Virus genome (UHGV): UHGV-1816333
DNA length: 16,071 bases
Origin: a virus
Strand: one strand, 5' to 3'
Every line of letters starts with the position of its first letter. The stretch's first letter is position 1. Positions 1 through 2,636 of this stretch are shown here, piece by piece. A model generated the notes under the pieces. It made no database searches, was not told the DNA's origin, and was given only the letters and a program-made list of their open reading frames with translations. The position numbers and the translations under genes were made by a program.

Positions 1-59
1 GTTGTGGTGAGAATATCACCTTTCATCAGGTGGCCAAATTTAGTGTGCCACTACACATT
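1..59. repeat. Left copy of a 59-bp perfect terminal inverted repeat; reverse complement of 16013..16071
   Basis: Reverse complement of 16013..16071 matches 1..59 base for base by direct comparison; first mismatch at position 60 vs 16012. The track ORFs 30..1706(+) and 15506..16042(-) both begin [10 protein letters not shown], as expected from the repeat. Confidence 0.9.
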
Positions 60-2636
60 CCATTTATCGTTGGCATCCTTCCACTCTTTCGAAAACTCAT
101 CCAGTCTGCTGGCGTTATCCTCCGTCAGGTCGACTTTTTCCAGCAACTCCTTGCCGAGATGAGATTCGGTTATCTTGCCTTTGAAAAAATCCAGGTAACC
201 TTCCGCATCATCGCTCGCCCGACCGACAGCCTCCACGAATGCCGATTTGCCAACGGTGTTCACACTGCGAACGTAAAAATAATAATCATGGCCCGGCCTG
301 ATATTGATACTGGCAGCTATCCAGTACAGCGCCGTGCCAAGATAGCGGGCTGTGGTTTCAACCTGCCTGATATCAGCAATCCGTTTTTCCGAGAACCAGA
401 ACTCAAACTGTACCGTCGGGTCATAAACCGCAAGATGCGGCGTGGCGGTTATCTGAAAATAGCCCGGTGTCAGCTCAATCCGAGACGGCGCTGCCGGTGC
501 GGCAATCCGGAACGATACCGATGCCGGATCGCCCTGCTGTCCCCACGCATTTACCACCCGGACTGTCAGCCTGTAGTTCCCCAGCGCCAGTTGCGTGAAG
601 CGGTATGTGGTTTCCGTCGTCCGGGCCGTGCTGACCAGCCGCTCACTGCCGTCATCCGCGGCCACGGTCAGGCGAAGCATAAAGCTCACCCCCTTCACCA
701 CCTTCGGCGTATCCCAGCGCGCCAGCACCTGATATTCCCCGCTGTCTGCGGTGACTTCGGCAGTCAGGTGCTGCACCGCTGGCGGCGTGACACCATTCAC
801 CGTGCCGCTCTGGTCGCCGTCAAAGTGCGCCCCGTTATCCACGATGGCCTCTTTTTCCGGTACATGCTGCACGGCGGTGATGGCATACGTGCCGTCATCG
901 TTCTCACGGATACTCACGCAGCGGAACAGGCGCTGACGCAACGTCGGCAACTTCAGCCCCCACACACTGTATTCTGCAACGCCGTCAGGAATCCGATTCA
1001 CTTTCACCTTAAGTCCGTCGGTGACGGACTGAACCTCCACGCTGACCGGATTACCACTTCCGTCAACCAGGCTTATCAGCGTGGTACCGGAGGATGGCAG
1101 CGTGATTTCACGGTCGAGCGTCAGCGTCCGGGTCTGGCTGTTCACCGCCAGCACGCGACCACCGGTGCTGATACCGGCATAGTCATCATCGCAGATTTCA
1201 ATGACATCGCCCGGTACATGGCGAAGCCCTTCAGCACCCACGCTGAAATCCACGGTCTGCGTCTCCAGCAGTTCCGTTTTAATCAGCCACAGCCCGGCGC
1301 GGTGTGCCTGCCCCCGGCTGGTACAGCCAAAGGCGTCCATCTTCGTGACGTTACGACCGTAACGGAGAATGGCCGGCGTGTCCTCCACAAGCTCTGTCGC
1401 CGTCTCCCAGCCGTTATCCGGGTCAATCCAGTTCACCTCAACGGCATTATGGCGGTCCTTCAGGGCGCTGAAGCTGTAGCGGAACGGCGCGCCATCATCC
1501 GGCATCACCACATTACTGCGGTTATAGGTCCACACCTTATCCGACGGTCGGTCCTGCACAAACGTCAGCGTCTGCCCGTTCCATACCGGCATACAGCGCA
1601 TCGCCGAGCAGAAATCACTGAGCACATCCCACGCCTTACGCTGTGTGGTCAGGTACGCATTACAGGTGATGCGCGGCTCCGTGCCGCCAAAGCCGTCCGG
1701 CACTGACTGGTCGCAGTACTGGCCGATGACATACAGCGCCCATTTATCCACATCCGCCGCACCAAGACGTTTCCCCATGCCGTAGCGCGGATGGGTCAGC
1801 ATATCCCACAGACACCAGGCCATGTTGTTGCTGTATGCCGGTTTAAACGTTCCGTCCCAGATACCGCTGTATTGCCGCGTCTGCGGGTTATAATTCGACG
1901 GCACCTGCAGAATACGCCCGCGCAGATGATAATTACGGCTCACCTGCTGGCTGCCGAACTGCTCCGAGTCCACCTGCACGCCGACCAGTGCCGTGTTCGG
2001 GTAGCACTGTTTCACATCGATAATTTCGGTGTATGACGACCAGAGCGTTTTGTTCTGCAGCTGGTCTGTGGTGCTGTCCGGCGTCATCTTGCGCATCCGG
2101 ATACTGAACGGGCGCGGCGGCAGGTTATCCACCACCACCGAGGCCAGATACTGTGAAGTGGTTTTACCCTTAATGGTGATGTCCTTTTCCGTCACCCAGC
2201 CACCGTTACGTTGTATCTGAACCAGCAGGCGGACTTCCGATGGATTCCTGTCCCCCTTTGAGGTGGTTTCCACCAGTGCCTGCACGCCGAAAGTAAAACG
2301 CAGACGGTCAATGTTTGCCGACGTGATGGTCCGGGTGATCGGCGTGTCATATTTCACTTCTGTACCGAGCACCGTCTCGGAGCCGGAGGATTCAAATCCC
2401 TCCGGCGGTGTCTGCTCCTGCTCACCGGCCCGGAACACCACCGTGACGCCGGATATATTGGTATTCCCCTCACTGTCCAGCACCGGCGTACTGTTCAGCA
2501 GCACGCTTTTTAATCCATCCACCGGACCTTCAACCGGCCCTTCGCTGATGGCATCGATCACACTCAGCAGCTGCGTGGACTTCAGGTTGTCCTTCGCTTC
2601 GCGCGGGGTATGCCCCTTACTGCTGCCTTTACCCAT
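51..2636 (-). CDS. J: Tail tip / host specificity protein J, N-terminal ~857 codons only; 3' end replaced by the inverted repeat, stop created at the junction
   Basis: 861-aa ORF starting [24 protein letters not shown], recognised as lambda gpJ (full length ~1132 aa). Ends ...[15 protein letters not shown]-stop, where lambda J continues. Sits directly downstream of I as in lambda. Confidence 0.93.

Follow-up and report, generated by a model that had tools for sequence, protein, structure and literature searches.

Gene J of a lambda-type prophage fragment breaks off at the terminus of an IS3-family insertion sequence

IS911 is a 1250-bp insertion sequence (IS) of the IS3 family, with an orfA/orfB organisation involving a -1 frameshift, and it produces 3-bp target duplications. 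Direct target duplications of 3 bp (3-4 bp) are typical of IS911-like elements of this family. As exemplified by IS911, IS3-family elements normally move by a copy-out/paste-in route, which gives simple insertions.

[quoted passage not shown] The receptor-binding domain is Ig-like, and its loops are inserted into LamB (PMC11101478). The stretch of DNA analysed here, hereafter the window (16,071 nucleotides of UHGV virus genome UHGV-1816333), carries a J gene that lacks the last two parts of this scheme. The original prediction had described its frame as cut at a junction close to the left edge and had left undecided whether this junction was real or an artefact. Our analysis indicates that the window is very probably a fragment of a lambda-type prophage in which both J and the terminase gene A are interrupted by an IS, the contig being bounded by the IS repeats (Table 1).

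Table 1. Positions of the features discussed in the text, numbered from the first base of the window.
Feature	Position	Strand	Description
IS end, 55 nt, IS3-family, IS911-related	1..55	-	end upstream of orfA ('IRL'); outermost base of 5'-TGTAGTGG... is window base 55; remainder beyond left edge
Chimeric J frame end	51..56	-	codon 861 GTG (Val) made of J base 56 and IS TG (55-54); TAG stop (53-51) from IS terminus TGTAG
CATT, native J next to IS end	56..59	.	reverse complement of AATG at 16013-16016; lengthens terminal repeat from 55 to 59 nt
Gene J, codons 1-860 of 1132	56..2636	-	hub, FNIII/Ig domains and most of alpha-helical shaft; without central straight fibre and receptor-binding domain
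17 intact lambda-type late genes	2697..15509	-	I, K, L, M, H, T, G, V, U, Z, FII, FI, E, D, C/Nu3, B, W
Terminase large-subunit gene A, remnant	15506..16016	-	C-terminal 169 of 641 codons kept; N-terminal ATPase part cut off
Second IS end copy, inverted	16017..16071	+	starts at terminal TG; remainder beyond right edge

Truncation of J

In the orientation given, the window represents a lambda-type late region in reverse complement. Translation of the minus-strand J open reading frame (ORF; 51-2636) gave an 861-aa product ending in KDANDKWNV followed by a stop codon, just as had been predicted. Residues 1 to 860 aligned without any gap to residues 1 to 860 of lambda gpJ (1132 aa; PDB 8iyk_J) and were 99% identical to the full-length J of a prophage of E. 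coli JNEC-KY203. The gene order is H-M-L-K-I-J, J lying directly after I at the end of the tail cluster, as in lambda and JNEC-KY203. What is absent from the window J is the stretch from residue 861 to residue 1132, including the LamB-binding part; the loss amounts to 272 C-terminal residues, close to the figure of about 275 given beforehand.

The domain content of the product agreed with this alignment. Pfam recognised four N-terminal and central J domains (hub and FNIII/Ig), named FNIII-A_GpJ, Phage-tail_3, Ig_J and Ig_J_second; these four families, with the accessions PF24801, PF13550, PF24421 and PF24489, were all matched with E values of 1e-40 to 1e-42. Neither PF09327 (Phage_Tail_Tip) nor PF12421 (Ig_GpJ_C, the receptor-binding domain) was matched by Pfam on the window J, while the full-length J of BH100N, run in the same comparison, matched both; the predicted loss of the LamB recognition region was thereby borne out. 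Placed on the published domain scheme, the break coincides with the end of the alpha-helical shaft segment 841-861 of gpJ (PMC11101478). Compared with lambda gpJ, the window J is thus collinear over residues 1-860, with the same hub, FNIII and Ig domains and the same position after I, but has neither the central straight fibre nor the Ig-like receptor-binding domain. It is a truncated allele and not a complete member of the gpJ/TipJ group.

The plus strand of the same region (30-1706) holds a 558-aa ORF, antisense to J and wholly inside its coding region, which is most likely a spurious frame of the GC-rich J gene.

The insertion sequence and its two junctions

DNA alignment showed that homology to J ends exactly between bases 55 and 56 of the window. 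When the first 3 kb were searched by megablast against 5426 complete E. coli genomes, J matches started at base 56 in thousands of records, and bases 1-55 were never aligned with J. In O121 strains, bases 1-55 matched a separate piece about 745 bp further along, inside J; this piece forms the terminus of an element that is annotated as "IS3 family transposase" and occupies another J position. All 55 bases match the final 55 nt of the 1258-bp element at L001:2798-4055 (E. coli O121 RM8352), the 100% identity including its terminal ...CCACTACA and stopping precisely at the terminal base. From base 56 onward, direct alignment gave uninterrupted J. Read along the coding strand of J, the junction is AAA TGG AAT G/TG TAG (the slash marks the boundary), bases 57-62 being the codons of Asn860 and Trp859, and in an uninterrupted J the sequence from codon 861 onward is ...CCCACATGGCAT.

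These data bear on the possibility that J occurs here naturally in a short or retargeted form of 861 aa, with a C-terminal end of its own, to which we give practically no credence. An open frame closed by a stop codon is all that such a variant has in its favour. The product follows full-length J collinearly up to residue 860, beyond which its frame enters the IS; no C-terminal domain was detected by Pfam, and the break lies inside the shaft segment mentioned above. The identity of bases 1-55 with the IS refutes the idea, and it was rightly stated at the outset that this is not a natural full-length J variant.

The element itself was characterized from the complete reference copy at L001:2798-4055. 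Both of its ends start with TGTAGTGG, and 20 of their first 26 positions agree, the opposite end (IRR) beginning 5'-TGTAGTGGTCAAGTAATATTGGCCAC.... Both ends of the window terminate in TGTAGTGG..., that is, in inverted repeats beginning 5'-TG, a hallmark of the IS3 family, in which such repeats measure about 25-40 bp. The reference copy encodes orfA (HTH; HTH_Tnp_1, PF01527) and orfB (rve/DDE, PF00665) with a programmed frameshift annotated by RefSeq, and it scored 268.7 bits against the NCBIfam IS3 model (NF033516; cutoff 160); the evidence on orfA, orfB and the frameshift comes from this complete copy only, the window holding 55 nt of each of its own copies. The sole RefSeq name of the transposase is 'IS3 family transposase' (WP_085968792.1), and a literature search with the IS terminal sequence for a name of the element found no paper.

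The element resembles IS911 in several respects. The window terminal sequence TGTAGTGGCACACTAAATTTGGCCACC... matches the left end of IS911A of K-12 at 43 of 55 positions, and the complete copy has a similar length, the same orfA/orfB organisation and 3-bp duplications. The body of the element is, however, only about 60% identical to IS911A where it can be aligned. As judged from its sequence, the element is a distinct IS3-family relative of IS911 and not IS911 itself.

Copies of the element or of close relatives were matched in 2416 of the 5426 complete E. coli genomes, in up to 17 places per genome. Nine complete copies were examined for target duplications: six are flanked by 3-bp duplications (GGC, ATT, ATA, TAG, CGT and AAA) and three, all in complete E. 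coli genomes (L006, L009 and L012), are not. About two-thirds of the copies thus look like simple insertions and about one-third look rearranged, a proportion suggesting that this element fairly often undergoes IS-IS recombination or is affected by adjacent deletions. One of the copies without a duplication lies in prophage gene FII of strain E2863. Among GTDB representatives, the IS end was found only in a Shigella flexneri chromosome and in a 210-bp Acinetobacter contig. The latter (JQCU01000096.1, L004; draft genome of Acinetobacter idrijaensis) contains an exact 32-nt match to the IS end and probably represents contamination or a stray piece of an IS.

The right edge of the window has the same structure. 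Whole-window searches aligned bases 56-16016 only, corresponding to lambda 18085-2125, and the reverse complement of 16017-16071 is identical to window bases 1-55 and to L001:4001-4055. The unique block between the IS copies measures 15,961 bp. Its 17 intact genes have the lengths of those in the annotated JNEC-KY203 prophage and contain no internal stops, and the G-T slippery site GGGAAAG is retained (8027-8033). GpA_ATPase and GpA_nuclease are the Pfam domains recorded on the intact 641-aa A protein, and from codon 472 backward, towards nu1, an intact A reads ATGGTCGGGTCAATCC.... An ORF with a GTG start (15506-16042) begins within the IS end and continues uninterrupted into the A remnant.

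A repeat search detected a terminal inverted repeat of 59 nt in the window, 100% complementary between 1-59 and 16013-16071. It consists of the 55-nt IS end and of 4 nt of native sequence, CATT in J and AATG in A, and it determines the point at which a k-mer assembler stops; CAT is likely to be the 3-bp target site of the J insertion. No common motif was seen at the nine other insertion sites of the IS, including those with the six duplications listed above. Because of this, and because a match is predicted neither by simple insertion nor, according to our derivation, by duplicative inversion, the shared 4-nt inner flank CATT was treated as chance, which it probably is (1 in 256, noted after the fact).

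The exact junction between J and the IS had no match in the 5426 complete E. coli genomes, PLSDB plasmids, GTDB species representatives or JGI metagenomes, and that between A and the IS had none in the complete E. coli genomes. The exact 861-aa product is not on record in an index of 153 billion genes or in a collection of 15 billion proteins; a near-identical product is on record, from a single ENA contig (L020) that is described below.

Origin of the contig ends and the state of the prophage beyond them

We propose that two 1258-bp copies of the IS3-family element would lie in inverted orientation in a lambda-type E. coli prophage, one after codon 860 of J and the other before codon 473 of A, the orfA-proximal ends of both facing the 15,961-bp block. 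The insertion in J would cut the central straight fibre and the LamB-binding domain off from the reading frame, with a stop supplied by TGTAG two bases into the element, and the insertion in A would part the ATPase region of the terminase from the C-terminal one. Assembly of short reads in a de Bruijn graph could not have passed through a multicopy IS, and the contig would then comprise the unique block together with that part of the repeat lying within one k-mer, which would explain why just 55 nt of IS are found at either edge of the window. From these 55 nt of each copy we extrapolate that complete elements are present at both ends. We infer that the assembler broke off at both contig ends and that ordinary transposition gave rise to each IS copy.

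A closely related contig was found in an ENA metagenome assembly (L020; ERZ28618485, 16,063 bp). Apart from 4 nt missing at either end it covers the whole window, including both junctions; 51 nt of the IS are left on each side, and its terminal inverted repeat measures 51 + 4 = 55 nt. Such a 55-nt repeat would be expected of a k=55 de Bruijn unitig between inverted repeats, and the 59 nt (55 + 4) of the window would fit another overlap length.

An assembly or library artefact, with chimeric contig ends and with J and A intact in the organism, was also considered and appears highly improbable. At first sight the symmetric, perfect 59-nt inverted repeat at the window ends looks artificial, and finished genomes lack these junctions. 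In a de Bruijn graph, however, such symmetry is what a unique segment between inverted repeat copies should produce. Each break coincides exactly with the canonical terminal base of the IS, a precision that a chimera would not achieve twice, and the J and A flanks have only 4 nt in common, far too few for a k-mer misjoin. The ENA contig, which was assembled separately, has the same two junctions; it is the one outside support for them and may come from the same or a related sample. The original prediction had envisaged either a junction real in vivo or an artefact marking where the contig went wrong. The former stands, in that the junction is a transposition junction at an exact IS3-family terminus, the IS nature of which had gone unrecognised. 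The latter does not hold, as the contig ends at the junction because the IS is a multicopy repeat.

The intact counterpart of this prophage is on contig L015 (NCBI GCA_050724075.1, 443 kb), which carries nu1, full A (641 aa), full J (1132 aa), lom, stf and tfa. Over window bases 56-16016 the two differ by 32 substitutions, all within a 337-bp patch of J (936-1272; about codons 455-567), and the other ~15.6 kb are identical. Given this identity outside one patch, both insertions would be very recent, in a prophage otherwise unchanged.

The patch has a history of its own. The ENA contig differs from the window by 14 substitutions, all within 1146-1272; it carries the variant of the window at 936-1053 and that of the intact counterpart at 1146-1272. 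The pattern suggests that another lambdoid J paralogue took part in gene conversion, or else that the assembler switched paths between co-resident J copies.

What lies on the far sides of the two IS copies can be pictured in more than one way. We lean slightly towards two simple insertions. Codons 861-1132 of J, followed by lom, stf and tfa, would then continue across the left copy, and the 5' end of A, followed by nu1 and cos, across the right one, with 3-bp duplications CAT and ATG. The six duplication-flanked copies among the nine in finished genomes argue for such insertions, as does the fact that elsewhere the block is identical to an intact prophage, which points to events of very recent date. 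Against them, the far sides lie outside the window and no match to them was found in any collection searched, and the three copies without duplication indicate that rearranged copies are not rare.

Tentatively, the IS copies may instead be the end-points of a rearrangement, that is, of an IS-mediated deletion, inversion or translocation, or of one arising by recombination between IS copies. In that case the 3' part of J together with lom, stf and tfa, or the 5' part of A together with nu1 and the early region, or both, would be lost or located elsewhere, and the block would be an isolated prophage remnant. The copies lacking target duplications, one of them in a prophage gene, are consistent with this. 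The same IS end adjoins both ends of the block, a geometry that duplicative inversion also makes, and inverted IS copies permit flipping of the block by homologous recombination. However, two independent insertions give the same geometry half the time, the sequence contains no evidence of a deletion, and the copy-out/paste-in movement of IS3-family elements, as generally known from IS911, normally yields simple insertions.

It seems very unlikely that the two inverted IS copies and the 16-kb head-tail block form one unit, created by a single IS-mediated event or mobile or invertible in the manner of Tn5/Tn10 composite elements. The identical 4-nt flank CATT at both inner junctions hints at a single event. 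The two records of the IS-block-IS arrangement, the window and the ENA contig, both stop inside the IS, so that the inner junctions are what can be seen. If such a unit existed, it would offer a means by which a complete cassette of virion-structure genes, without terminase or receptor-binding tip, could be shuffled between prophages or replicons.

Consequences and known parallels

A J product without the central fibre and receptor-binding domain should be unable to bind LamB, and with A split no functional terminase is expected from the locus. Since both J and A are cut, the prophage would be defective in packaging as well as in adsorption. The earlier expectation that this J cannot mediate adsorption agrees with this. 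The accompanying speculation about non-infective or retargeted particles is moot, because A is cut by the same IS end and the prophage copy could not package DNA anyway. From established lambda biology, such particles would arise only if another prophage complemented in trans.

The J frame of the window is an ordinary IS-interrupted pseudogene at a repeat-bounded contig end; this is known biology and raises no new question. For annotation, both the 861-aa product and the 169-codon A fragment should be recorded as pseudogenes or truncated alleles, of J and A respectively, that an IS3-family element has interrupted. The contig is best described as a piece of a defective prophage bounded by repeats, and should not be taken for a misassembly or for the source of a novel short tail-tip protein. 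It provides a further example of an IS disabling a prophage very soon after its intact state, no substitutions outside one patch separating it from its sister.

The same IS is found in lambda-type late genes of other strains. It lies at another position of J in O121 strains (e.g. RM8352), and in FII in strains E2863, RM9131, RM9975 and SD134209 and in O111 RM9322. In O121 RM8352 the IS is near the 3' end of J and is flanked by an AAA/AAA 3-bp duplication. On the far side of that IS, 90 nt at the site of the last J codons and upstream of lom (L001:2707-2796) are labelled by RefSeq as a fragment of 'homoprotocatechuate 2,3-dioxygenase', which may be a mis-annotation.

Interruption of lambdoid prophages by resident IS elements has been seen before. 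In the Rac prophage of K-12, lomR is interrupted by IS5. In O157 Sakai, IS insertions in lambdoid prophage genes are documented, and prophage Sp4 has an IS in the terminase gene nu1 (PMC2669165). The locus described here resembles these cases in that a resident IS inactivates a late or morphogenesis gene and leaves its neighbours intact. It differs from them in the positions of the insertions, after codon 860 of J and before codon 473 of A, which occur in none of the 5426 complete E. coli genomes, and in that two inverted copies of the element bracket the whole head-tail block.
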